A stretch of DNA of 64,000 bases from Psammoneis japonica (taxonomy: Eukaryota), in contig QPGO01000118.1 in assembly GCA_008632985.1 (NCBI GenBank), forward strand, positions 124,001-188,000, read 5' to 3'. The translations under genes and the position numbers were made by a program. A model generated the notes under the pieces. That model was not told where the DNA came from. It saw only the letters and a list, made by a program, of their open reading frames with translations, and searched no databases. Positions 21,200 to 62,352 of the stretch are shown here, piece after piece; the first letter of the stretch is position 1; each line of letters starts with the position of its first letter.

Positions 21200-22720
21200 C
21201 GAAAAGTCGCACTTCCATTGGCAATCGCAACGCCAGCATCACTGCATGAAAAGCAGAGGAGATCTGACAGCTTGGGGCCACATCATGCAATGATTGCAGT
21301 GGAGGAATTCAAAAAGTCACACACAGTGTTATGATGGAAAGATCCACTGCTGCGGTGCTTTGCAGACATTCTGCAGACCGCATTATGTCGACACTTCATC
21401 CTTGGATGTGCGCCATTTTGTGAGTGTTTCATTTGGATGCAAAACACAATCAAGGCCTCAAAGATCCATTTCACTTGAGGAATGCCGTTCTTGTTGTGAG
21501 TCTCTGTCCTGGCAAATTTCTAAGATGTCCTTGGCACTGTGGACACTTGACCCATCAAAAAGCATGAGGCCATTCTTCCAGGGATCGGGGGTCTTTCCTG
21601 AGGATGCCAGGTGTGTCAAACACAAAGCCATCTTGAAGACGCGTTCCAGGTCTAGGTGGGACCTCGTACTACTGAACTGTGACATCGATAGTTTTTTGAA
21701 TCTCGTCGTATGTCGCGCACGTAGAATTCTACGTGATTTTTTGATATTTTGTGTCATTTTACGGTACACTTATTGAGCGATCCGTCCAAAAACTTTTGAC
21801 ATTTTTTGTTACAGCGCGATTCTATAATGTCTTAAGAATCGCGTAGGGCAGGTGCATTTGCAAAAACGTCGAGTGGTAAGAGGCATAATTGTACCACAAA
21901 CTTGGCCGTTTATTTGATGTTGAAGATAAATATATCCATTAATTAAATTCTCGTACTACGGAGCTCGCACGTAGAATTCTACGGGCCAAATGTCACACGG
22001 AGTCCCACCTAGGGCTGGAACGCGTCTGAAGAACTTTGTCTTTTGCTTTTTGCAGAGTGGACAAACAACCATCTTCAGTTGCTCCAATGATTGTGTCATG
22101 GTTTTTACCTGTTGTTCAAAGAATGACAGTGTCGCCAGATTTGAGGCAAGCAAAAGCAAACATTTTGTTGATGCAAGCACCACCCCTCTCTGCTGCTGCA
22201 ACCTCTCCTTTTCTTCACCATTCTGCTCACTTTCCTCTGCAAGCATGTCTCAACATCATGGCATTCCAGCCTGGACAGTGAACAAATGGTGTCATCAACT
22301 GGCTGCATCAAACACCTTTGAGTGTTTTCATGAGAGGGGCTGCTCCTCGGCTGGCGGGGGCACGGCACAAAGAGTCCTTCTGCCTTGTGGTGGCGGCGCC
22401 AAAGGCCGAGCAAAGAATCAACCACAGATGAGGGTCATGAGCACATCTTTGAAAACCATTTGCAACATGATCATTCTGTTCAAAAGATCTTGATTGATGC
22501 GGCTGAAGTCCAGCCTGCACCATCTGATTGCTGCGCTGCTCCTGGCGTGCAGCCGTGGCTGGGCTGGAGTTGCCCCCTGTTGCCCTGAATCAAGCTAACC
22601 CAAATCTGGCACCTGTGCAGATTGCAGATGAATCAGGAATGGGATGAATGCAAGCACAAATGTGACTTCCCACGACATCCTCAACCAATGCATGTGCATG
22701 GTGTTTTTCGATCTCGTGTT
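21200..22720. other. TpA-depleted patch interrupted by a TA-retaining MITE
   Basis: TA rare at 21200-21637 and 22030-22720 but abundant at 21638-22026. Confidence 0.75.
21638..22026. mobile_element. MITE, copy A (389 bp, 25-bp TIRs, 4-bp TSD TGAA)
   Basis: Left GACGCGTTCCAGGTCTAGGTGGGAC; right GTCCCACCTAGGGCTGGAACGCGTC (2 mismatches); TGAA at 21634-21637 and 22027-22030; second copy at 38601-38952. Confidence 0.92.
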
Positions 22721-27363: not shown

Positions 27364-27759
27364 GGTCGCATTAATGGTGAGCATTATTCTGTGTATCAAG
27401 CTCGAAGTGGTGCATGCGGAAGAGGCGTTTCGCTGCAGCCTCTGTAAGGCAAATAAGTTTTAAGGGTCTGTTATTCTATCTCTGCTAGAGCAGTGCGAAA
27501 GTACTTTACTGTAAGTCACGTTTCAAACTGAACGTCATTCGAAGTTACTGCTACGGTGCTCCCACGTGTACTTGTAAAGTGAGGAGAATAGCTAGAGCAA
27601 GTTGCTGACAGGAGACTCCTGTCAATCTAAGACTTGTTGCAGCAACAATCGTGTTAGAGAGATAAAGAGTGAACGAATCCGTGACACTGCACCTCTTCTC
27701 TCTCTTCTTCTTTAGTTGGTAGGACAGGTTCGAGACCTCTCTAGCTGGCCCCACTCCAG

Positions 27760-27960
27760 TTAGCTATAGCTTTTTAATAGGTGCTGCTCTAGAGCTAGAG
27801 TAGAGAGCACCTCTACTCTTTCTACTCTCTCTACAGCAGCAACCTTACCGGTAGGAGAGAGAGAGTAGGTCTACTACGGAACTATAACTAGCTAGCTAGC
27901 TCTCTCTCTCTCTCTACTAGAGTAGAGAGTACAGTAGTCTAGCTCGCTCCGAGAGAGAGG
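27760..27960. repeat. Low-complexity CT/AG/CTAG-rich tract
   Basis: ctagagctagagtagagag, ctagctagctagc, (ct)n and (ga)n runs. Confidence 0.7.
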
Positions 27961-28401
27961 GCATGTAGTCGCATGAGTCAAAATAATGAAGTTACATCAT
28001 TGAATATGTTGATACTTCTCAATTGATCGCTCATAAGTTTTCAGTTTCGTGTTTCGTCTTGTTTTGTTGCTGTGTTTGTCAATCAACAAGGTGGGTTATT
28101 AGAGAATTTTTTTGCTTATGAGAAGGTCGTGTCAAAATTGCAAGTGGTCAGTGTGTTATTGGACTGTTGTAAAAGTGGTGGTGAAAAAGATCGCGGCCGG
28201 GTCATCAGCATCACGCATCACACAGTCGTGCTTCAATTTGCCGCAGAAGATGTGTATCCGCAGTCACAGAGTATTCTGTGCATTCGTTCAGAAAGAGTTG
28301 TCGCTCAAATCTCACGTTGCTTGTTTTCTACTTTGATTTCAACAGAGCTTCTTATTATCATCGTATCGATATCGATCTGATAAACTATAGCTAGCCACAG
28401 C

Positions 28402-34517: not shown

Positions 34518-35021
34518 TCAGGTGCCGCAGCATGAGAACTGAGAACGCTTGAAGCAGCAAGCTTTGCAGTTGCAGCCATTTGGCGCAATGGCACCGACAA
34601 AACCAGTGCACTCTTTTTTCGCCGTTGCAAGGCCAGCTCTTTTAATCTTCAAACTGTTTTGCCTTTTACGGGCATTCTCCGCATTGCAGCTCTCACAATT
34701 GATTGCACTGTTGACAGCCTCAGTGCAGCAATGGACATTGCTGCAAGATTTCAACCCAACGAATGAGTGTTGTTGAGAATGACACGAATGACCATCATTG
34801 CAACTGTGGTCATGAATCTTCATGCTGAAGAGACACCTGCATGATTCGCCGCCATTGTGTGATCTGTTGGCAACCAGCCAATTCACCTGGCCGGCACATG
34901 AACAACTGCCAGTGTCGCTGCAGTCATCTTTTTTTTCATCACTCTGCACTGTTGACAGAATCGCAAACACAAAAATCATTGCAAGAACTGTTGCAGATGG
35001 TTGATTCTGCAGCCTCCACAC
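34518..35021 (-). pseudogene. Decayed secreted Cys-repeat protein fragment (SCN...SC pattern)
   Basis: Hydrophobic leader followed by periodic SC motifs; uncertain because the mutational process itself creates Cys codons. Confidence 0.3.
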
Positions 35022-36632: not shown

Positions 36633-37000
36633 ACCACGTTCTTCTTGACACTGCTTTTCACTGGGCGTTTCATTTGCTTCTTTCTCTTGCAACCATTTGA
36701 TGATGTCATCGCAAGTGGGTGGCTCCTCTTGCCCCTTTGCATCACTCTCTTTGGCCTTGTCAAGTGAAACTTTTGCATGACTCATCTTCTCCATTTGCAC
36801 TTCTGGCAATGTGCACTGGGGTGCTTTGCCACCATTCTGTTCTTGTGGCTCTTCATTTGCTGCTTGAGCTCCCTTTTTTTGCAGCTGCTTGAAAGACATT
36901 GTGCAACACACAGCTACTAATAAGAGTTAATGTATCACGGCGACGTGTTACAGCCTTAGAAAACATGAATTCATAATGCAGCATGCATGCAGACAAAACC

Positions 37001-38471
37001 TCATTTGATGGGACATTGGGAGAATGGAAGGGAGAACCCTACCATGTCCAACTCAAGGAGGGTGTAGAACCACACCACGCTCGTCCGTATAAAGTACCTC
37101 GTGCGTACGAAGCAACGCTACGTAAAGAAGTAGAACGCCTAGTACGTATCGGTGTTCTCAAACGCGTTAACCGATCCCAATGGGCAGCTCCATCATTTAT
37201 CATACCGAAGAAAGACTTAACGGTACGCTTTATTAATGATTTGAGAGAGCTGAATAAACGGATCAAGCGATTACCTTATGCGATTCCTCATATCCAAGAT
37301 ATGCTACTTAAGCTCGAAGGCTTTATGTGGGCTACATCGCTGGATTTAAACATGGGCTATTATCATATCCGATTGGATGCTGATAGCAAGAAGCTTGCAC
37401 GCTCATCTTCCCGTGGGGCAAGTATGAGATGCAGGTATTGCCCATGGGGTTATGTAATTCGCCAGACATTTTCCAAGAACGCATGTCAGGCTTATTTGAA
37501 GATCTATCGTTCGTTCGAACGTACTTAGATGACCTTCTCGTCGTGACGAAAGGCACCTATGAAGATCACCTCAACAAACTTGAAGAAGTTTTATTGAGGG
37601 TCCAGAAAGCAGGACTAAAAGTTAAAGCAACTAAATCTCATTTCTGTCAAACCCAATTAGAATACTTGGGTTATCTGGTCAACAGAGACGGCACACGACC
37701 AATACCTAATAAAGTCGACGCCATTAAGTGAATCGCGACCCCAACCAATAAACGCGACCTAAGGTCATTTATTGGTATGGTGAACTACTACCGTGACGCG
37801 TGGATTAGACGTTCTGAAGTCTTGGCTCCGCTAACACGACTCGTAAGCGAGACTGTTAAGTGGGAGTGGACGTCCGTTGAAGACGAGGCGTTCGAAACCG
37901 TTAAACGGGTGATATCGGATGATGTTTTATTATCACATCCTGATTTTAATAAACCCTTTGAGATACATACCGATGCCTCTGAATATCAATTCGGAGCAGT
38001 GATATCCCAAGATAATAAACCTATCGCCTTTTTATAGCAGAAAGCTTAATAGTGCGCAATTAAATTATACAACAACGCAGAGAGAATTACTCGCCATTGT
38101 GGAGACGTTGAAAGAATTTCGAACGATTCTCCTGGGTCATCGTATACTTTTATTCAATGCCGAGCGCGTTATGCGCTGGCGGTTAACATGCGAAGAATAC
38201 GGTCCCGAATTACGCTATGTTAAGGGTACCCATAACCTAGTCGCTGACGCTCTTAGTCGCCTTCGGCTAGCACCCAGCTTGCCTTCCGAGGCCAATCCGG
38301 ATGTAAAAGACACTCCATCGAGTCGTCCTTTGCATGAAGCTTTTAATGCAGACGCGCAAGACGATGCATCTCTGCCTGTCAGCTTCAAGCGCATTCAAAA
38401 AGAACAACAAAAGGACAAGCACCCACTCTCACGAGCCAAGGACTCGTCCGACTGCTCCACTCGCGCGCATC
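37001..38471 (+). pseudogene. Ty3/Gypsy pol fragment (RT, RNase H, start of integrase linker), disrupted but mostly TA-intact
   Basis: SLDLNMGYYHI, LPMGLCNSP, YLDD, EYLGY, HTDASEYQ and NLVADALSR; same family as 57279-62352; frameshifts and a TGA at 37729. Confidence 0.92.
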
Positions 38472-38536
38472 GTAGCGGAGTGGTTCATCGCAACCATTGG
38501 GCAGGAGGCCAGGGGTTTGAAACCCTGAGTGGGAGT
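38472..38536 (+). promoter_or_regulatory. tRNA-like sequence with Pol III A and B boxes inside the TRIM
   Basis: A box TAGCGGAGTGG (38473); D-stem GCGG/TCGC; B box GGTTTGAAACC (38514) inside a CAGGG/CCCTG stem; anticodon region too short for a functional tRNA. Confidence 0.55.
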
Positions 38537-38600
38537 TGTCTGCAGCAACGTTGATCACTGTCGAACGCGTGAAACTCTGTGCAGTTCTGCACGTTCCTTC

Positions 38601-38952
38601 GACACGTTCCAGCCCCAGGTGCGAGCTCCGCAGTGCGAGAATTTAATCAATGGACACATTTGTCTTCAACATCAAATAAACGCCCAAGTTTGTGGTGCAA
38701 TCACGCCTCTTGCCACTCGACATTTTTGCAACTTCGCCTGCCCTGCGCGATTCTTAAGACATCATAGAATCGCGCTGTAACAAAAAATGTCAAAAGTTGT
38801 TGGACGGATCGCTCAACAAGTGCACCGTAAAATGACACAAAACATCGAAAAAATCACGTAGAAATCTACGTGCGCGACATACGACGAGACTCAAAAAACC
38901 ATCGATGCCACAGTTCAGCAGTGCGAGGTCCCACCTGGACCTGGAACGCGTC
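38601..38952. mobile_element. MITE, copy B (inverted relative to A, short internal deletion, TSD CTTC)
   Basis: Reverse complement of 21638-21971; TIRs GACACGTTCCAGCCCCAGGTG and CACCTGGACCTGGAACGCGTC; CTTC at 38597-38600 and 38953-38956; empty site visible in the TRIM paralog at about 44060-44075. Confidence 0.92.
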
Positions 38953-40359
38953 CTTCACACGCACCCACACTGTTCCGCCAAAACCGTGCAGTGTCAGCAC
39001 ACGTCAGCAAAGAGCCACATGGACGCGTGACACATGGGGAGGAGTGCAACATGCAGCCACCAGTGAGAGTCAATGTGTCACGGCGACGTGTTGCAGCCTT
39101 GGAAAATGTGAATTCACAATGCAGCATGCACGCAGACAAAAACAACCTTTTGTCTGCATGCGTGCTGCAATTGACTTGATTTTCAGAAACCTGGCCAATC
39201 TTCAATTGAGCTTCTGCTCACAGTTGCTGCTTGTCTTGCTCATGTTGTTGCTGGTGCATTCCTGGCAGCACATCAATGTGAGTGACAAGAGCACTTGCAT
39301 GTCAGCCAGTGCACCATGTTGGGGCTTGGTTTGGTGGGGTGACACCCATCTCAGCTTGCTGGCCAGGTGAAAGGTTGCTCTTGACTTTTGAACAGTGGAT
39401 GATTGGCAATGCATGCGCGGGGTTGGTTTGGTCTAATTCATTTCTGAACCCATCTGGCAACATTGTTGGATTGCACCAGAGCACTCTGATTGAAGGTTTG
39501 GCCAGGATGTTGAATGACACCAAAGCAAAGCTGGTCTTTCCACAAAGGGTCCATGCAATTCTGCCTCACCTTTGTCCATTTCTAATCCATTCAGCAAACC
39601 TCTACATTGCTGATGAACAGAGGGATTCCCATCACCAGGACAAACATGAAGTTGATCAGCGGGAACACACTGTGGAGGAAAAATGATGTCCACAACATGA
39701 TGAGAATGACTCGGAAGACACCATTGACCTTGTGGCAACGACACATGTTGAGCTTGCACAGGAGATTCATCACATCCTCTTTGTTTCTAATGAAAGAATC
39801 ATTTTCTGTGCTTTTGCATTCTTCTGGTGGGGAAGCTCCAGGCATGACATTCAAAGCTTCAGCAACAATTTTGGCAACAAATGTTGCACCAGAACTCTCT
39901 TTGTCACCCCCAGTCTGAATTTGATCTGTCAAAAGAGATGACTTGGATTTCATCCCTCACATTTTGATTGTGTCATAGATGACAAAAATCTCAAAAGGTG
40001 CTCGGCCTCAAGCATTCCCAGTTTTCCTTGTCTGCATGGCAAGGTTGAAAGTTGGAGTGATCGTGACTTGTTGGAATGCACTCAACTCTTGCATCAGGAA
40101 TGGGCCTGCACCACAGACAGTCAAATGCAAGATTGTTGAACTTCCTTTCAAAAAAGCAACTTTGGCAAGTGAGAAATCCCTTGTGAACTTTGGAGGGTCT
40201 TGCCACAAACATTCTTGTTGTCTGGATGGATTGGAAGGAAATGTTCAACCAGCCTTTGGAACTGCACCCAAGCACTCTTTCCACTTGCCAATTTCCAGTC
40301 ATGCCACACCATTGACGCAAGATGCCCACCACCAACAATGGTCTTCCCAAGCTGGCTGA

Positions 40360-42060
40360 AAGCACAAAAAGGCCGCTGTGATGAAGAATGTGCAATGACC
40401 AAAAGAACGAACACCAGCAAGAGAATTCCATTGAGAGAGCAAATCTGGTGTCCCCGCATGGAAGCAAAAATGCAGTGAAGCTCAGTGCAAATTGCTGAGA
40501 ACAGAGGGAATCCTGCAATCAAGACTTGGAATTGTTGAGATCTGCGCCATGGAACCTCTGTTGGGATTTCACGGGCAACCCCAAAATTGGCACTTGCACA
40601 GTTTTTTGCTGTGACAATTCCACCAAAGACAGTGAGGGGAAAGGTGATAAAAACAAATGGCGCAGTTGCAGCCACAATGAGCAAGCACTGGCAGATCCAT
40701 GTGCAAGCACCGCCAAATTCACCCACATGAAGACAGCAACACGTAGACCAGGGAACAAGAGTCCAGTGGCGAGGATGCACTGGACCCAATTTTGTCAGCT
40801 CATTGTTGCCCAAAGAGGCAAACCAACAATGTGTGTCCACCAACAAAGGAGGTGAGGCAGTGCAAGGCCACAACTCCAGCCAGAATTGACCCTCTTTAAG
40901 TGGCAGAGATGCGCTCAGCAAGAGCCAAACAAAGATGAAAGAATGTCATCATGTGGAGCTGGTTTCTGATTCTGACTGCAGCACAGAACAAGGTGGGATT
41001 CCAAGGGAACCTGAAAACATCACCATGGACAAGCTTCCTCCCCCTGACTCTTCTTTTTCCATGACATCATTGTCCTCAAGTTCCATGCATCAAGAGAAAA
41101 ATCATTTTTGAGAACTCCAAAAAGGACAATGGCCAAGAGTGCTGTCAAAAAAAGAACCAAGACAAAGGAGTTGATGATTGACAACCAGCGGGTCTCAAAC
41201 AAACTCAGCAAGAAGCAAGATTTGGTGCACTGGAACATTCTGTGTCTCTGAGTGAGGTTGGGCTCTTCAAACCATTTGATGGAATGTGAAAACTGAACAT
41301 GGTGTGGCTTGTCAACCTCAGTGACATCCACCAGGCAGTCCATCTGTTTGAACAGAGGGCAAGAATGTGAGCATGGGGTGCATCTCTTGTGCCCCCCAAT
41401 GACAAACATGAAGAGTTTCTTAAATCAGCCCAACACAATTTGCCTGTTGTCACACCTGATGCAAAAATGAAGGTGGGCAAAAAGAAAGGGTTTTGCTTCC
41501 TTCAATTTCTCCTGCAGTGACATCTTGATCAGCAGTGTCACCAGTGCAGCCCCACATGGGAAGATCTCCCACAAACATTTCAAAAAACCAGCTGCTTTGT
41601 GAGTTGCATCCTTCAACTTTTCCAAGTCTTTCTTTGTCAGAAGCTCCTTGCACAAAAGATGCCACTCAACACTGTTGGTGCCATGAGACACTTTGTGCAG
41701 TGAAGTCTCATGACAATTGCCAAGAATGGACTCTCCAAACCATTTTGCTCATGACATTGACTTCCCAATCACTTCTCCTTTTTGAGACCCCCACGATCTC
41801 CAGCAATTGTTGAAAGGACTGCTCAAAGCAATGCAAAGTGCAAGTGAACAAGATGGTTCCACAAATCATTGGTTCTTGTTCACAAGGTCATTTCATGCAA
41901 AGCTCTGCTGTGGCAGCACTGTGGGCAAAATCCATGCACGGCAGAAACACAACCAACTCACCTGACTTTGTTGGCGACAATGTGAACAGGGTCATGTTCT
42001 CTGCAAACCTTTTCTGCTTTGGCTCTTTTAACCTTGGCACCATCCATCAAGGCAAAGGAA
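40360..42060 (-). pseudogene. TM9SF/EMP70 (nonaspanin) pseudogene
   Basis: DPVHIVANKV (followed by a GTGAG donor), FFEMFVGDLPMWG, WLSIINSFVLVLFLT, GFPLFSAICTELHCIFASMRGHQIC (family pattern FSAIYIELYYIFAS.WGH.IY). Confidence 0.85.
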
Positions 42061-43878
42061 CAAAACAGCCGCCAAAAAAGCAAGAGTTGGTTGTGTGACA
42101 TGGTCAAAATGTTGCCATTGCACAACAAATGAGAGCACCATGTGTCTGACCATTCACATTCCTGGTTCGGGCTCACAATGGAGTCTGATGGGGCAAACTT
42201 GGTCAATGGCACATTTTTGCATGTGCGCGCTGAATGCCAGTGGTTGGATTCTTGGATTGGTTGGCGGCTGAACCAGCAAGCCAAATCCAACCCAATTTCA
42301 CAGTTTTGGGAAAGGTGGAGGGGAGCCTTTTAAACAAGAGGTTCTCATCTTTGACAAGACTGTGTGTTGTGCAGTTTGCAATGTGTGCTCTTGTCTTTGG
42401 TGCAGACGGGACATCTGGGACATGGCCACGGCAATGCTGTTGTGTAAAAAGTGTGATTCATTCCATCAATGAAATTCCCCCATTAGCTCAGTCAACTGCT
42501 GCTTGCCAACTCCTTGCCAAAAAGAAAAAGTTGCTGTCGGAATCCTCGCCCACATCACAGAAGCATCTGGCATGGTCTGTGTTCAGTCAATTTGGTCATG
42601 TGCCAGTTTTTGACAGGATTTCAGTGTGGCTGCTGTGCAAAATCCATCAACAGATTTTGACACCAACCAAAGATGTCTCCTTTTGATTGGCTTCCATTTC
42701 TGTTCTGCCATCATGAAGATGAAACTTTGTTTCATGTTGTCTCTTTTCAGAAGATGAAAAAGGAGAAAAAGGAATTGGGAACTCAAGCAGAGCCAGTGGA
42801 AGAATCCATTTTCTTGAAAAAACCAAGAAGTTGAACAAGGAGGACAAGAAGAAAAAGAAGAAATGCAAGTGCAGTTCTTTCAAGGCTCCAAAGAGCAGCA
42901 GGGCAGCAACAAGAGTGCAAAAGATCATTCCCACAAGAAGAGAAAGAAAGGAAACAGCAATGACGTCACACTGAATGATGGCTCACCTGATGCTGAATCT
43001 GAAGCACCTGTCCTTGATGGTTCAATGGTGGGTGGAATGATGGCATTGATTGACCAGACAAATGGAGCAGTTTGCTCTGCCACCAACCAGCTGGAGAGCG
43101 GCAAGTGCAAAGAAGTTGGTGTTGCACCCAAATCTGGGTCCATTGACTTGCATCTTGCTGAAGATGGTGAGTGCTCAGTTTCATTTTGTTTGCAATTGCA
43201 TGCATGGAAGACATTGGGCATTCTGCAGTTGCCCTTGATCAGTCAAATGTTGTGCCAGAGCAGTGGTTCTGCATTGTTCCTAAAATGGGATCATTGTTTT
43301 GCCAGCTGATTGGCGAGTGTGACATTTGAATCAAGTGCATCCATGGAAATGTTCTCGGCCTTTTGCACATTTTTTTGAACTGCAAATGATGACAAGAGAC
43401 CCAACTTTCCTTTTGCCACCAATGCTGATGACCACTGTGAGAGTCCTCTGCAAGCATGCCAGGATGTGTTGGCACTTCTGAAAGACTGCGTGAAAAGAAG
43501 CTCCAAATTTTGATTTGTGATCCACATTTCTGCAATGGAGCAATTGTTCAGAACCTGGGCTCTTTGGGCTTTCCCAGTGTGTGCAATTGCAAAGAAGATT
43601 GCTGCCAAATCTGGGGAAGTTCCAGGTGTCCTGCCCATGACATGCTGGCGACCAACCCACATTGCAGCGGCAACCACATGTTGAACGATTGGTTGACCAC
43701 GTGATGTTGAAATCATTCAGCAGCGAACCATGGATGTCATTGCTGCTGCACAAGGGTTGTTGCATCTCCAAGACAAAAGGAACTCAACCCTTTTACATTG
43801 TTCCTCTCACAGGAGGCATGTTTGCACACCACCACGATCTTTTCAAGAGAGCAAGAAAAGCAACATCCACAAGAAATT

Positions 43879-44265
43879 TGCAACACACAGCCACTGGTGA
43901 GAGTCAATGCATCACGGCGACGTGTTGCAGCCTTCAAATGTCACAAAGGGCGTGGCAAAAACAACCTTTTGTCTGCGTGCATGCTGCGCTGTGAATTCAC
44001 AGCGGAGTGGTTCATCGCAACCATCAGGCAGGAGTGCGCAAAACTCTGTGCAGTTCTGTGTGTTCCTTTGCACACCCACACTGTTCCGCCAAAACCGCAC
44101 AGTGTCAGTGCACGTCAGCAAAGAGCCGTGTGGACGCGTGACACATGGGGAGGAGTGCAATGCACAGCCACTGACAAGAGTTGATGCATCACAGCAACGT
44201 GTCACAGCCTTTAAATGTCACAAAGGGCGTGACAAAAACAACCTTTTGTCTGCATGCACACTGCA
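43879..44265 (+). mobile_element. TRIM-like element, copy 2 (387 bp, 110-bp terminal direct repeats, TSD AATT)
   Basis: Repeats at 43879-43988 and 44156-44265; PPT GGGGAGGAG at 44147-44155; AATT at 43875-43878 and 44266-44269. Confidence 0.85.
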
Positions 44266-44864
44266 AATTGTCCCCGTTTGCAAACATGTGGTGCTTGTGG
44301 GGAGGAACAAACCAGCAAAATCAGCAATGGTTGTCGACAATTGCTTGATGAATCACCAACCGATGTTGCAAGAAGCAAGAGTGCTCTGCATGACTTGAGG
44401 CAAAAGGGAAATTGGAAGAAGAAGCAGCCAGCAAGAGTGGAGCAAATAGAAAGAAAATTGGTCTGCGCTGGTTTCTTGAATGGTTGAGCCAGCCAGCTCT
44501 CCTCAGCAGTCAAAATTGCTGCTTGCCATTCACCAAAATGCAAATGGCATCAATTTTGATGGCAGTGCAGGGCAGGACACCTTGAATTGACAAGGGTGAG
44601 GATGAGCTGCAGTGGAAGCAGGCAAGGTTGAGAAACATGATGGGGAAGAGAAACTGCTTTCTGCAGCACAGCCGCACAAATGTTGCGCCATTGGAGAGCC
44701 ACTCATCTCACATTTTTGCTGCATGGTTTGTCATTCATCAGGATCTCCCACCTCCCTCCACCTCAACTTTGTCCATGCATGCTCCATGGTTCATGTTTCA
44801 CTGTTGCACGCGTCATTCTTCCCTCAAATTCATGTGTCAGTTGTTGAGAATGTTGATGTTTGCC

Positions 44865-45725
44865 ATGCCTTACATTGCCCCCAATGCTGACTCTTGGGGT
44901 CCACCAGATTTCATTGACAAAGCAAGTCCAAATGCTCCTTCCAGCTTGGCCAAGTTTGCTGACTTGCCCTGTGCTCCCTTTGGCCAATCTGACCACCTGG
45001 GCTGAGCTGCTGACTTTGTTTCTTCCAACCACCCTGGTCACAGTTGACAAGGAAGATGCAGCAAGGGAAAGGTCTTCAAAAAGGAAACAGAAGAAGGAGA
45101 AAAAAGTTTCCACCTGGTGGATGCTTCCAAAACTGCAACCACCAAAAGATTTGTTGTGCCTGCTGCTTGTCGGTGCCAACACACTGCTCTTTTGCATCAA
45201 GTCAGTGCTCATTGCCAGCAAACTGCTGGAAGTGCTGCTCTTTCCAAGGAGACTTTGACTCAGCAAAAGGAGGTCCCGGCAGATGTGGCAGACATGGAGG
45301 CAGTCGTGGAGGCGGTTGCAGTGGCTGTGGTGGCCGAGGAGGGCATCATGGCAACAATGACTGCACTGGTCAAAGTCCATCTGTTGTGGTGCAGCAAGAC
45401 TGGGTCAAGGTGGAGGAGTTGGATCTTGCCAAATTGACAAAGCACTTGTGCACCTCAACAGATTTTCCCATGGCTGAGTGTGTTTTGTGGTGTGGATTCT
45501 TGGATCCACACAATGACCCCAATGTCTTGAGTTGGGAGCATGTGAAATTTTCCAGTTGCTGAAGTGAGCTCTTTGCAGAGAGAACATCTGGGATGCCAAC
45601 AATCTGGGTCTGACCTTCTGCCACAATCTGGGCATTTGTTGACTTCAATGCCAGATCATTGTTGGCTCATGAGCCAAGTCTCTCCTTAAACATGACATGA
45701 GAACCAGACAAGTTCACAAGCTTCT
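44865..45725 (+). pseudogene. eIF3 subunit D 5' fragment pseudogene
   Basis: NADSWGPP...FADLPCAPFGQSDHLG, SVVVQQDWVKVEELDLAKLTK and LWCGFLDPHND match the eIF3d N-terminal blocks with Y to C/H. Confidence 0.75.
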
Positions 45726-47539: not shown

Positions 47540-48183
47540 AAATTGTGGACTGGACATGCCATGTTCCTTCAACCCAAATTCGTTTTGTTGGGCAAAGCTT
47601 GGTGCAACATTCTTGCATCAAAAACAAATGCAGTGCCTGCTTCTCCAACCAGTGATTGTTTTTCCAAACCCAACCCAACCAAGCATCTTTCGCGTTCCTT
47701 CTCATTCAACATTGCCTCACAACCATCCAGCCAAGCCTCAACTGCACCGTTGTCCTCCGTTGTGTCGTTGAGGAACAGAAACATGGTGAAAATTTTGTCA
47801 CCAGGAAATGACTCTGTTTCCACATGATCATGATGAATTTTGCCCTTTGACCAGAAGTTTGATCTTGAACTTGAAGCAGGAGCGTTTGCGGCTGTGTGCC
47901 GGGATGTCTTTGTGCCCAAATCATCTGCTGGGGGAAAGCCAGGAATTAACTCCAACATTTTTTCTGCCAGCTCAACACCTTCCGCCTTGTCCTTTTTGTC
48001 AATGGCAAACTCACCAACAAAACGGTGTCCTTCCTTCTCTTGCTTGCTGCTTGGTGCCTTGTTTGCCAGGGTTGCAATCTTGTTGAGTGGGTGGTTGTGG
48101 AGTTTTGACTTTTTGTGGGTGACCTTTTTTTCCTTCCTGGTGCACTCTTTCTTTGCACCCGGCTGTCTTGCTCTTGACGACAT
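47540..48183 (-). pseudogene. 2OG-Fe(II) dioxygenase (PhyH-like), decayed
   Basis: IHHD (HxD), TMFLFLNDTTEDNGA, GEAGTAFVFDARMLH.ALPNKT, then a TGA (plausibly CGA) and R. Confidence 0.7.
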
Positions 48184-57278: not shown

Positions 57279-57710
57279 TGCCCCATGTGTGCACCAGGCG
57301 CTGAAAAAGAAGATGTGTCACGACTTTGTCGTTGTGAAAAATATGAGCTAGTTTAGAGTAGAGAAAATGGGATCGTGCGAATAGGGAATCTTGCCAAATC
57401 CCTATTCGTTCGCATTTGGATCGTATTAAATCGATCGTGCGTTCGCATTATGGATCGTGCGAATCAAGCCATCACGCGCCATGCACGAGTGATATCATCG
57501 TGTGGAATCACGCTACCATCGTGGGCCAGACGACGGGCTAGTGTGCTTCACACGGATGCTCTCTTAGCATCCTTCTGGAATTGCCTAAGACCTAGAGCCA
57601 CGCCCTCCTGTGGTCGTGCTTCCCAGGTACGTGTTAACAATACTACGTTGCCACGTACAAGAGGCTTATGCACGGTCTCGCCGTGTTGTCCAGTAGCGAG
57701 GCATACTGCA
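57279..57710 (-). repeat. Gypsy 3' LTR (mostly TA-retaining)
   Basis: Colinear without indels with 61921-62352. Confidence 0.95.
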
Positions 57711-57879
57711 CACTCCCCCATGATGAGGGCCGTTAAGTGACAGAATGTCTTACTGGTGATAGGGTACAATCTGCCGTAGATTATACGTATCTATCAGCGC
57801 TCCGTTCTGGATACGCAACGTGCCGTTGTCATATACACGGACAACTCTGGCGGGTCCTGCATAGCTGTCAGAACCGTAT

Positions 57880-60842
57880 TTATTTAGAGGATTGTTCCTG
57901 TTTGATAAGTACTAATTGCCCTACGGTATATTGATACTCCTTGCGTTTCTGATTTTCACGCTTGTTGTTTAATTGGATAAGCTTCTGCTTTCTGGTTTTT
58001 ATGTACTTCCACTTAGTACGATAGGCAATAGATAAAACCGCATCGCGTCCGAAGACCAATTGCATGGGACTTGCACGCGTGGTCGTGTGTACCGTAGCTC
58101 TAATAGCGAAGGCTACTGCGGAGAGGATGCCACTCCATGGGTCATCTTCGTCCAGTTCCATATCCTGTACTGAAAAGGAACGTACCATGTTACCAAGTGT
58201 CTGGTGTACACGTTCCACTATGGCATTTGCCTGTGGATTCCGTTTACTTATGGGTTTCTTCAAAATCCCATAGTCATTTTTAATCATCATCTGGCTAAAT
58301 TCTGCCATAAATTCTGTCCCACGGTCATAAACCACCTGGGTTGGCCACGGATATCTGCATAGCCACGTTTGTTCCACGACGTTTGCTACGACGTCTGCGC
58401 GTTTCGTAGACACTTTTTTAATCTCGAACCACCCGGTTGCTGGGTCAATCATTGTGACTGCCCATAATTGCAAGGTGTCCTTTCCGCCCTATCATATCTA
58501 TGCATAGAGTTTCCCATGGAATTATCTCTGCGACCTTTTCTGGTAGCTTCCCATAACGCTGCGTTCGGCGTTTTGTCTTCTGGCATCGATCGCACTTAAC
58601 GCACGTAGAATGCACCGTAGACCTCATACTAGGCCAATAGAAGTGCTAGGCAATAGATATTTCCGTACGTGTCTCACCTGGATGACACAGTGTCTCGTTG
58701 TACCATTCAGTTAGCGGAACCTGCAATGACTGTGGTACTACGATTTTGTCCTTATGACAGATTAACTGTCGTGATGACCCTCCCCCAAGATACGCGCGAA
58801 TGGAGTAGTCGGACGAGTCCTTAGCTCTTGAGAGTAGGCGCTTGTCCTTTTGTTGTGCTTTTTGAATGCGCTTGAAGCTAACAGGCAGAGATGGCTCATC
58901 TTGAGCGTCTGCATTAAAGGCTTCATGCAAAGGACGACTCGATGGAGTGTTTTTACATCCGGATTGGCTTCGGAAGGCAAGCTGGGTGCCAGTCGAAGGC
59001 GACTGAGAGCGTCAGCGACCAGGTTGTGGGTGCCCTTGACACAGCGTAATTCGGGACCGCACTCTTCGCATGTGACCGCCAGCGCATAACGCGCTCGGCA
59101 TTGAATGCTTTGTACGTAAGATTTTTATGATCAGTGTGTGTGACCACATGATGACCAAGGAGAGTCGTTCGAAATTCTTTCAACGTCTCCACAATGGCGA
59201 GTGATTCTCTCTCCGTTGTTGCACAATTTAATTGCGCACTGTCAAGCTTTCTGCTGTAAAAGGCAATGGGTTTGTTATTTTGGGACACAGCTGCTCCCAA
59301 TTGACATTTAGAGGCATCGTCATGTGTCTCAAAGGGTTTGTTAAAATCAGGATGTGATGACAAAACATCATCCGATGTCACCCGTTTGACGGTTTCGAAC
59401 GCCTCGTCTTCAACGGACGTCCACTTTGCGAGTCGTGTTGGCGGAGCCAAGACTTCAGAACATCTAATCCACGTGTCACGGCAGCAGCTCACCATGCCAA
59501 CAAATGAACGCAGGTCGCGTTTGTTGGTTGGGGTCGCGATTCGCTCAATGGCATCGACTTTGTCAGGCATTGGTCGTGTTCCGTCTCTGTTGACCAGATG
59601 ACCCAAGCACTCTAATTGGGTTTGACAGAAGTGAGATTTAGTTGCGTTGGCTTTTAGCCCTGCTTTCTGGACCCTCAATGAGACTTCTTCAAGTTTGTTG
59701 AGGTGATCTTCACAGGTGCCTTTCGTCACGATGAGAAGGTCATCTAAGTGCGTTCGAACGAACAACAGATCTTCAAATGAGCCTGACATGCGTTCTTGGA
59801 AAATGTCTGGCGAACCACACAATCCCATGGGCAATGCCTGCATCTCACACTTGCCCCACAGGAAGATGAGCGTGCAGAGCTTCTTGCTGTCAGCATCCAA
59901 TCGGACATGACAATGGCCCATGTTTAAATCCAGCGATGTAGCCCACACAAAGCCTTCGAGCTTAAGTGGCACATCTTGGACATGAGGAATCGGATGAGGC
60001 AATCGCTTGATCCATTTATTCAGCTCTCTGAAATCATCAATGAAACGCACCGTTAAATCTTTCTTCGGTGTGACAAATGATGGAGCTGCCCATTGGGATC
60101 GGTTGACGCGTTTGAGAACACCGATGTGCGCTGGGCGCTCTACTTCCTTGCGCAGCGTAGCTTCGCATGCACGAGGTGCTTTATGCGGACGAGCGTGGTG
60201 TGGTTCTACACCCTCCTTGAGTTGGATGTGGCAGGGTTCTCCCTTCCATTCTCCCAATGTCCCATCAAACAAGGACTCATGGCGTTTCAACAGTGCCAAA
60301 AGGTTGTTTTGTTGAACTGTAGAAAGTCCCATTGCCCCTCGCGTCATGTCCTCGAGGCAGGCCGGTGCGCACTTAGCGTCCAAAATGCGCGAAATCCGGT
60401 CGGTTTCCGAAGATGAGGCTTCTGGATCTTGAAGATAGAAGGAGGTTTCCACCGCAGCATCTACGTGCCTCATTGGCACTTCTCCATTGACTGATGGCCA
60501 CTCTGTCATCTGTTTAGAGAAGACAATGTCAATGCCTCATGTCTCCAGAATGTCACGTCCAACAATCATGTCGCACTTGCCCAACTTTCCGTTGTGCACG
60601 TGGACGGCATGCTTGGGTTCTGCAGTTTCGGATGATTCTGGTGACCGAAATTTAACGGCACAGTCGTCAGACGCACTGAATGAGCCTGCCACCGTAGTCC
60701 AGTTTGTCTCAGCCGTTGAATGGCTTCGCAGATGTTTGCAGTGTCGACTGTCGAGCAGAGTGCTGCCAGCGCCACTGTCTGGCAGTGCCTCAATGGTTTG
60801 AGTCTTGCCCTTGCCATGTTTGGTGTTCATGGCCACAAACAA
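57880..60842 (-). pseudogene. Gypsy pol: protease (ALPDSGA), RT (HLDD), RNase H, integrase (HPG..R, C..C, YDRGTEF, NPQANAIVER)
   Basis: ORFs 60537-60842, 58953-60509, 58646-58930, 58445-58627 and 57880-58473; frameshifted. Confidence 0.93.
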
Positions 60843-60973
60843 GATTGGAGCAAGATGAGTCTTTTTAACTCGTTTGGGGATTGGCCTGCAACACGTGTAC
60901 GATGGTAATTCAGTTGCTCATTTGTACATTCATCTGATGCATTAAAACCACCTGCATCATGTCGGCCCCCTTC

Positions 60974-61813
60974 TCAGGCGTCCGAATCTTCGGAACCACT
61001 TAAGTTGAGGTCGCGGAAGTGATTGAGCTCCTCCTTGTGGGCCTTGCGCTTTTTCTGAGCGTTGGCAAAGCACTCCTCGACCTTCGATCCGATGAGAGCA
61101 TTGGTGTCTTCCTCATTCCGAGGTTTTGCATCAGGCTTGCCGCCTCCGTCATTGGAATGTCCAGTCTTGACACGTTTCACGTGGTGCTTGAGCTGACGGC
61201 AATCTTCCGCATCATGTCCACAGTCAGTCCCGTGTGGCACACACGACTTCTGGGTGTTCCGCTGGGTCGTGATCAACGACTCAGGATTGTCCATTCTACG
61301 TCCCCGCTTGCGTGGAACCTTGGCATGTTGGTCCTGGTTACCTTCGGCAAGCTCGACCTGCTCGATGCGCTCGCAGAACTGCACAAATTCGGTGATGGCA
61401 TGCGCCAACGGGTCAAAATTCTGTAGCGTCATGAACTTCTGCCATGCGTTCGGCACACCGCACTCGAACATGTCGCACAGTTCGTCATTGGGCAATGGTG
61501 CCGGTGTTTCTCCATCCTCCATCACGGGTGGAAACTGAGAGATGTGGCCGTTAATTTCAACAGCCCTCGCGACACAGTCACGAGCAGAAACCTCTGCGGG
61601 CTTGCGCATGAAGCGCCGCAGATGACGCTTCTGCAGCAGCACCGCCCCATTTGGGAAGACACTTTCCTTTAGCTTCGCGATGCATGCTGCGCACGTAGCG
61701 TTGGTTTGGGATGCCTGCTTGTCAGCGGCATTGTCAAATGACGTCAGAGCATCGCCCTGTGGCAAGTCACGCTTCTTTCTTCTCCGGCCGTGCGAACGGA
61801 ATCGGCGGCTCAA
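60974..61813 (-). pseudogene. Gypsy gag, with a C-terminal CxxHxxxxxHxxxxC knuckle
   Basis: VFP..AVLLQKRHLRR.MRKP, GVPNAWQ, FCERIE and CVPHGTDCGHDAEDC; lies between the 5' LTR and the protease. Confidence 0.85.
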
Positions 61814-61920
61814 CCCGCTTCTTCATGGTCGTTTTGAGATTTGTCGGTCCTGCCAACATTTCGTAGTTTCGTTTCTGTAGATTTCGTCACCTCGCACAAC
61901 ATGCGGGAGCAATGTTGCTG

Positions 61921-62352
61921 TGCCCTGTGTGTGTGCCAGGCGCTGAAAAAGAAGATGTGTTGCGACTTTGTCGTTGTGAAAAACATGAGCTAGTTTAGAG
62001 CAGAGAAAATGGGATCGTGCGAATGGGGAATCTTGCCAAATCCCCATTCGTTTGCACTTGGATCACATTAAATTGATCGTGCGCTTGCATTGTGGATCGT
62101 GCGAATCAAGCCATCACGCGCCATGCACGAGTGATGTCATCGTGTGGAATCACGCTACCATCGTGGGCCAGACGACGGGCTGGTGTGCTTCACACGGATG
62201 CTCTCTTAGCATCCTTCTGGAATTGCCTGAGACCTAGAGCCACGCCCTCCTGTGGTCGTGCTTCCCAGGTGCGTGTCAACAATGCTGCTTTGCCATGCAC
62301 AAGAGGCTTGTGCACGGTCTCGCCGTGTTGTCCAGCAGCGAGGCACACTGCA
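61921..62352 (-). repeat. Gypsy 5' LTR (TA-edited)
   Basis: Colinear with 57279-57710; differs mainly by loss of TA. Confidence 0.95.

Follow-up and report, generated by a model that had tools for sequence, protein, structure and literature searches.

Repeat-induced point mutation, or RIP, in Neurospora and other ascomycetes introduces dense, dinucleotide-specific transitions on both strands, inactivates transposons in situ and spares genes; its changes are C-to-T, mainly CpA-to-TpA, and thus create TA. The editing enzymes APOBEC3, which converts C to U in minus-strand cDNA, and ADAR, which converts A to I in double-stranded RNA, produce transitions with a nearest-neighbor preference in foreign or repeated nucleic acid; their substrates are RNA or replication intermediates, and their changes are strand-asymmetric and common to both long terminal repeats (LTRs) of an element. 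The system closest to the one described here is that of Bigelowiella natans, in which integrated giant-virus and virophage DNA undergoes hypermutation restricted to TpA; the available part of the preprint reports measured de novo TpA-to-TpG/CpA mutations and an enrichment of reverse transcriptase (RT) and DDE domains among TpA-poor coding sequences, and its authors propose DNA adenine deamination with an ADAT2-like candidate (Mettrop et al., bioRxiv 10.64898/2026.01.13.699255). We describe a signature of this kind in a 64,000-nt stretch of the diatom Psammoneis japonica (contig QPGO01000118.1, positions 124,001 to 188,000; hereafter the window). The window holds two related elements resembling terminal-repeat retrotransposons in miniature (TRIMs), one of 387 bp (43879-44265) and one of 2268 bp (36902-39169), and we consider it highly probable that their LTR pairs were hit after integration by a process acting on chromosomal DNA and turning TA into TG or CA.

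The two elements provide four LTR copies, named by position as c36911 and c39054 (larger element) and c43888 and c44165 (short element) and compared over 60 aligned nucleotides. All six focal sites are TA in c36911, in the contexts CTAC, CTAA, ATAA, TTAA, GTAT, and TTAC. The same sites read CA, CA, TG, CA, TG, TG in c39054; CA, TG, TG, CA, CA, TG in c43888; and CA, TG, CA, TG, CA, CA in c44165. Alignment and direct reading thus reproduced the states listed by the first-pass annotation, as well as its count that TA is gone from all 18 site-copies of the latter three LTRs. The CpG block ACGGCGACG is unchanged in c36911, c39054, and c43888 and is replaced by ACAGCAACG in c44165, so the CpGs survive in two of the three edited copies, again as first noted, and CpG loss amounts to 2 of 9 site-copies. 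Relative to c36911, 42 positions lie within TA dinucleotides and 21 of them are changed, which is the ceiling if each site changes once; of the other 138 positions, 10 are changed (Fisher's test, p = 4e-9; 60 nt, three copies). When the copies are recoded as purines and pyrimidines, only 0, 0, 1, and 1 mismatches per 60 nt are left across the four copies, and nearly all differences are therefore transitions; two of the four copies have one transversion site each.

The loss extends beyond these six sites. Two further TAs of c36911 (36957-58 and 36974-75) are both gone in c39054, bringing the loss within this LTR pair to 8 of 8, and a seventh site in the short element's LTRs reads TTCAAA and TTTAAA, c44165 thus retaining one TA. 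The TA-bearing copy is not itself pristine: c36911 has CA at two sites where its partner c39054 has TG, which means that both sites were TA at insertion and were lost in both LTRs. Site 1 is CA in the edited copies of the window and TG in other genomic copies (listed rows 39058 and 39059, from contigs of one public sample). When the purine/pyrimidine-coded window was scanned with the LTR, the interior, and the LTR hairpin for older copies saturated by transitions, nothing turned up beyond the four copies already described.

An element inserts with two identical LTRs, and differences between them now record change in DNA after insertion. In the larger element, the 5' LTR has 8 TAs and the 3' LTR has none; the LTRs of the short element, 277 bp apart, differ by CA versus TG at five sites. 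A third pair comes from a gypsy retrotransposon in the same window (gypsy element B; Table 1), whose 429-bp LTRs align without gaps and show 31 differences. Seventeen of the 23 TAs in its left LTR are lost in the right one (9 to TG, 8 to CA), with no loss in the reverse direction; five CpGs have become TpG or CpA in the right LTR, and three sites are CA in one LTR and TG in the other. The 7% divergence of this pair measures hypermutation, not age.

The direction of change can be read from longer alignments. The larger TRIM-like element contains a captured gypsy RT/RNase H fragment (copy A), which we compared with the corresponding part of gypsy element B over 1470 aligned columns with 154 mismatches. 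Of these, 80 are TA in A and CA or TG in B (40 TG and 40 CA), and only 6 sites go in the opposite direction; counted from the 99 TAs of copy A, 78 are CA, TG, or CG in B and 21 are kept. As an outgroup, we took 40 homologous RT proteins, about 55% identical. At 50 replacements due solely to changes at TA sites, the outgroup matched copy A in 41 cases and B in 5, with 4 ties; some late codons counted here come after A and B go out of frame with each other, and these are given no weight. The codons concerned are those for Tyr, Ile, and Leu, and in one example an invariant Tyr-Tyr has become His-Cys. A miniature inverted-repeat transposable element (MITE) nested in the larger TRIM-like element has lost 19 of the 29 TAs of its partner in the gene island, and none has been lost in reverse. 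At the six LTR sites, CG occurs in 0 of 24 site-copies, despite surviving CpGs next to them, and the element interior beside c36911 has an observed/expected ratio (o/e) of 1.0-1.4 for CpG and 0.9-1.0 for TA; a CpG o/e this high shows that the interior is not a deaminated product. By parsimony and composition, by the protein outgroup, and by the logic of LTR pairs, TA is the ancestral state, as the first-pass annotation had argued.

The changes fall on both strands. Outcomes of TG and CA number 40:40 in the RT pair, 9:8 in the gypsy LTR pair, 7:12 in the MITE pair, and 9:10 in the TRIM-like LTR copies, and together with the five CA-versus-TG sites between the once identical LTRs of the short element, the even split in the RT pair bears out the early suggestion that each site resolves independently. 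Along the RT pair, the outcomes form 49 runs against 39.5 +/- 4.3 expected, with no clustering by strand, and this test rules out a single processive one-strand event behind the saturated tracts. The lightly mutated patches at 38380-38468, 36902-36970, and 57284-57320 have 10 CA to 1 TG (binomial p = 0.012, a post hoc value that includes one ambiguous site), and such one-stranded patches would fit short strand-coordinated events that accumulate.

The sequence context of the changes is narrow. In the RT pair, taking either strand, the A-to-G rate is 0.398 after T, 0.049 after A, 0.030 after C, and 0.010 after G, with ApA-to-ApG (11 of 224, against 2 of 196 for GpA) as a weak second target; the C-to-T rate at CpG is 0.063. 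By the base that follows, the edited A was changed in 24 of 42 cases before C, 28 of 58 before T, 19 of 66 before A, and 8 of 32 before G. The TAs still present in depleted DNA (n = 94 in 27.5 kb) lie in TTAA in 31% of cases, compared with 6.5% of the 1178 TAs in normal DNA; CTAA/TTAG make up 21% and GTAA/TTAC 18% of them, and ATAT and ATAC/GTAT are absent. Neighbor counts and residual contexts together give an order of sensitivity in which RTAY is highest, YTAR lowest, and TTAA the most resistant; TTAA, TTAG, and CTAA persist longest. The window thus records a TA-specific A:T-to-G:C process that acts on integrated DNA, on both strands and in tracts, prefers T-A-Y, has a weak ApA target, and spares the gene island.

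This process is faster than the decay of CpG. Using the copies inside the window to estimate per-site loss, we found TA and CpG losses of 20/20 and 2/9 in the TRIM-like LTR copies, 78/99 and 12/97 in the RT pair, 17/23 and 5/32 in the gypsy LTR pair, and 19/29 and 2/26 in the MITE pair. Pooled over the four comparisons, 134 of 171 TAs (78%) and 21 of 164 CpGs (13%) were lost (Fisher's test, computed with 134/172, p = 2e-35), so TA loss does outrun CpG decay, as had been claimed from the LTR copies, and is about six times faster per site in the same tracts. Family-wide variation is also in line with the TA-directed process. Three public runs of one sample contain the stretch wholly or in part, and no RNA data set is listed as containing it. 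Contig pieces of this sample that match 36850-39250 with at least 80% likeness number 4009, and their 142 variable places comprise 46 A>G, 50 T>C, 18 C>T, and 14 G>A changes and 14 transversions. Within the RT region, among the 11 rows listed, the five with mixed support for A>G or T>C all lie on TA (37273, 37455, 37493, 37506, and 37522), and the other six are changes private to the window copy.

The affected DNA is regionally confined, and the window is bimodal: 55 of its 500-bp bins have at most 5 TAs and 52 have at least 14. The depleted DNA, about 27.5 kb with 94 TAs, has a TA o/e of 0.00-0.14 per bin (about 0.03 overall in repeat and pseudogene DNA), a CpG o/e of 0.04-0.66, and a TG/CA o/e of about 1.8. 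The TA-normal DNA, 26 kb with 1178 TAs, consists of a gene island and parts of young transposons. Boundaries between the two states are sharp at 36902, ~38960, ~57320, and ~58990. In the larger TRIM-like element, the loss declines inward from the 3' end, from 8 of 8 TAs in the 3' LTR and 19 of 29 in the MITE to five sites in 38380-38468, one in 37000-38380, and 2 of 10 in the 5' LTR. In gypsy element B, about 75-80% of TAs are lost between about 58990 and 62352; the loss stops abruptly, with none in 57330-58990, and the spared LTR has three hits in its outermost 40 bp. Tract edges are thus not aligned with element edges, and saturation of one LTR can go with a nearly untouched partner in the same element. 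The upstream edge at 36902 coincides with the insertion site, so the element landed beside a flank from which TA had already gone; the process has been active repeatedly over time.

In a rival reading, the ancestor had CG at the six sites, with CA and TG as ordinary products of methyl-CpG deamination and the TA copy deaminated twice. Both dinucleotides are indeed one transition away from CG, and CpG decay is real in the mutated tracts (21/164 pooled). But CG itself is found at none of the 24 site-copies, the adjacent CpGs survive in three of the four copies, 12 additional hits would have to be assumed for the TA copy next to sequence with a CpG o/e of 1.0-1.4, and the outgroup proteins favor the TA codons 41 to 5. 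We therefore hold a CG ancestor to be extremely improbable; the first-pass annotation had also judged a double-deamination product unlikely, from the intact CpGs adjoining c36911. An untargeted cause, either a genome-wide uniform TpA bias or selection against TA with genes kept normal through selection, could draw on the under-representation of TA in the gene island also (o/e ~0.5-0.7). It is confronted by intergenic DNA of the gene island that is not depleted (27501-28000, o/e 1.21), by dead, unselected RT and MITE copies that retain TA beside saturated DNA, and by the sharp edges listed above, and we give it next to no credence.

Copies could also have been born mutated through ADAR-like A-to-I editing of retrotransposon RNA before reverse transcription, since retroelements are among the targets and a 5' U is preferred by ADAR according to the available part of the B. 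natans preprint (bioRxiv 10.64898/2026.01.13.699255). However, LTRs made from one template must start out identical, and those of the large element now disagree at 8 TA sites, those of the short one at 5 CA/TG sites, and those of gypsy B at 17 sites; both strands are equally affected within one copy, and mutation has also reached a host pseudogene and the MITE, which is a DNA transposon. This makes editing before integration a negligible prospect. A chemical variant of the favored process is harder to dismiss, although we think it unlikely: the same tract-wise change of TA to CA or TG would follow from an enzyme that modifies the T of TpA, to a base resembling 5-hydroxymethyluracil or 5-formyluracil (5hmU/5fU), which mispairs with G and yields T-to-C. 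The attacked base of a T:A pair is indistinguishable from sequence, the outcomes are symmetrical (40:40), and T-modifying enzymes are present in other protists. The excess of ApA-to-ApG over GpA changes suits an adenine-reading enzyme with the neighbor preference U > A > C > G, and A-deamination is favored by the B. natans authors in the part of their text at hand; neither argument is decisive.

For the post-integration process on chromosomal DNA, we propose that the A of 5'-TA-3', on either strand, undergoes an A:T-to-G:C transition and that each TA is resolved once and independently, such that a given ancestral TA may appear as CA in some copies and as TG in others. The underlying reaction may be an enzymatic deamination of adenine in DNA, with A converted to inosine and read as G. 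A candidate would be a deaminase of the TadA/ADAT2 type, whose natural substrate is U-A. In tRNA this is U33-A34, and TadA-derived editors prefer T-A-C, which provides a lead, not a test. By analogy with what has been proposed for B. natans, the enzyme may be directed to silenced or foreign chromatin.

Several points weigh against this account. T-to-C on one strand equals A-to-G on the other, so sequence data cannot separate adenine from thymine chemistry, and the process is known here from historical footprints only. The window contains only four copies of the LTR, and the polarity at its six sites rests on parsimony, the logic of LTR pairs, and composition, the outgroup concerning the linked RT pair and not the LTR family. 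The high-copy RT fragment (36999-38380) and the MITE of the gene island are largely unmutated, a poor fit to a homology-triggered, RIP-like rule.

In comparison with B. natans, as far as it is described in the part of the preprint available, the likeness lies in changes that are nearly only A-to-G or T-to-C at TpA, giving TpG or CpA by strand, and in long-term TpA depletion with an excess of CpA and TpG; the changes here are likewise focused on TpA, hit both strands, and are regionally confined. The host, however, is a diatom (a stramenopile) and not a chlorarachniophyte, diatoms being without mention in that part of the preprint, and the DNA hit comprises LTR/TRIM retrotransposons, a MITE, and a pseudogene of the host. 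The depletion is near saturation here (o/e ~0.03), compared with a rho of 0.45 for the viral region of B. natans, and is accompanied by slower CpG decay; T-A-Y preference and TTAA resistance, absent from that part of the preprint, are seen here, and the evidence consists of historical footprints, whereas de novo events were measured there. RIP differs in direction, as TA is destroyed here and the outgroup count is 41 to 5. With respect to the duplication that triggers RIP, repeats make up most of the mutated DNA, yet the high-copy RT fragment and the MITE copy have parts free of mutation, and one pseudogene has been hit. Unlike the targets of APOBEC3 and ADAR, LTRs belonging to the same element have diverged here and the changes lie on both strands, so the substrate is integrated chromosomal DNA. 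The literature searched contained no account of hypermutation specific to TA, or of depletion of TA, in diatoms; in the accessible part of one article (PMC9998398), RIP is named only as fungal background. Within these sources, the signature is in print only for B. natans, and the present case adds a new host lineage, new targets, and near-saturation, along with new detail on context, on the behavior of the strands, on where tracts end, and on how the loss compares with CpG decay.

The elements themselves are summarized in Table 1. Homology starts with TGCAAC in all four LTR copies and ends in ...CTGCA in the two downstream copies. The LTRs are 110 bp long in the short element and 125 bp in the larger one, lengths that fall in the range of about 100-250 bp for TRIM terminal repeats, and have TG..CA termini. 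Each element sits between target duplications of 4 bp without a mismatch (ATTG at 36898-36901 and 39170-39173; AATT at 43875-78 and 44266-69); a polypurine tract, GGGGAGGAG, abuts the 3' LTR in both elements. A conserved stretch starting with TGG lies about 20 nt into the interior, but with no tRNA gene in the window for comparison, the primer-binding site is unconfirmed. The label of TRIM LTRs, used by the first-pass annotation, is fair on these characters: a total of 387 bp with 110-bp LTRs, a 167-bp noncoding interior, a polypurine tract, and target duplications agree with the usual definition. The elements depart from it in the 4-bp duplication, usually quoted as 5 bp, in the captured RT fragment of one relative, and in the primer-binding site left unconfirmed. 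The two interiors are related, 38474-38507 and 38962-39044 aligning to that of the short element with transitions only, and the deletion form seen there (38601 joined to ~38958) is common in the genome, according to the public contigs, which represent one sample and do not give copy numbers.

The last 50 nt of the c39054 LTR form a hairpin with a 22-bp stem (z = -5.8); the LTR 3'-end hairpin lies at 39120-39169 and also at 43939-43988 and 44216-44265. The 5' LTR of the larger element is broken off inside this hairpin, where the captured RT fragment (1.47 kb, 87% identical to 60269-58780) starts. Since the fragment is joined exactly at the hairpin loop, the hairpin may have been the point of breakage or template switching.

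Table 1. Positions (within the window) and strands of the TRIM-like elements and of the other features discussed
Feature	Position	Strand	Remarks
MITE, TA-rich reference copy	21636..22032	.	Unmutated partner of the nested copy 38602-38960
5' LTR of larger element (c36911), first 97 of ~125 nt	36902..36998	+	8 TA left; TGCAAC right after ATTG
Captured gypsy RT/RNase H fragment, copy A	36999..38473	+	Pfam RVT_1; TA o/e ~0.9-1.0, almost unmutated
Interior of larger element	38474..39044	+	Nested MITE (~38602-38960); terminates in polypurine tract GGGGAGGAG
3' LTR of larger element (c39054)	39045..39169	+	0 TA; terminal ...CTGCA, then ATTG 39170-39173
TM9SF/EMP70 pseudogene	40308..41736	-	Pfam EMP70; tblastn with diatom homologue P0243; in TA-free DNA
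5' LTR of 387-bp element (c43888)	43879..43988	+	0 TA; AATT 43875-43878 just before
Interior of short element, 167 bp, noncoding	43989..44155	+	Terminates in GGGGAGGAG
3' LTR of short element (c44165)	44156..44265	+	One TA left (TTAA); 2/3 CpG of ACGGCGACG lost; then AATT 44266-44269
Gypsy element B	57282..62352	-	429-bp LTRs 57282-57710 and 61924-62352; mutated RT partner

The gene island covers about 23 kb (~11-34 kb), with a TA o/e of about 0.5-0.7, and of about 0.3-0.8 across its genes. Pfam matches identify a purple acid phosphatase, a galactokinase, metacaspases, ferritin, and a leucine-rich repeat (LRR) protein, and the galactokinase is 57-64% identical to proteins of the pennate diatoms Synedra, Fragilaria, Nitzschia, Cylindrotheca, and Seminavis, which marks the host as a pennate-like diatom with no near relative sequenced in the database compared. 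The intergenic segment at 27501-28000 is rich in CTAG and TAGAG, and its TA content shows that noncoding DNA as such is not TA-poor. The unmutated MITE of the island (family length ~390 bp, terminal inverted repeats of ~30 bp) belongs to a family that is extremely abundant in the public contigs; it adjoins a TA-free patch of about 560 bp (22033-22590) in the otherwise TA-normal island.

The host pseudogene in the TA-free DNA is a copy of a TM9SF/EMP70 gene with frameshifts and in-frame TGA stops. None of the 19 Tyr residues of its Nitzschia homologue is kept, and 7 of the positions are now Cys and 2 His, a count that is noisy at frame shifts. Being TA-free, this copy of a host gene shows that not only transposons have been erased. 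A Pfam scan of 20 long open reading frames (ORFs) in TA-free DNA gave only EMP70 above the curated cut-off, with PhyH just at it. The ORFs at 47569-48183 (-), 45044-45562 (+), and 34518-35021 (-) have weak matches to PhyH/2OG oxygenase, eIF-3 zeta, and DUF7640, and such frames may be further relics of mutated genes.

A natural mutator specific for TA and directed from A:T to G:C goes counter to the mutation bias usually seen and works in the reverse direction of fungal RIP, and it acts on transposons and dead genes, not on viral inserts only. LTR pairs with polarized single sites constrain the search for its enzyme through the flanking base, the strand, the tract edges, and the speed relative to CpG decay, and a DNA adenine deaminase that prefers TA would be of interest for base editing. 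Tools for finding repeats, dating LTRs, or predicting genes will misread genomes of this kind; the stops TAA and TAG are absent from TA-free DNA. Finding the same signature saturated in a diatom suggests that the system is widespread in the lineages of stramenopiles, alveolates, and Rhizaria (SAR). Tentatively, diatoms and chlorarachniophytes might share a dedicated enzyme of genome defense, a deaminase guided by chromatin whose target in double-stranded chromosomal DNA would be the A of 5'-T-A-Y-3'. It would spread, in short bursts coordinated on single strands, from silenced flanks into new insertions until every TA is erased, a SAR-wide "reverse RIP" under which most nongenic DNA of this diatom would have been rewritten. 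A system of this type can reshape most of the noncoding sequence of a genome.

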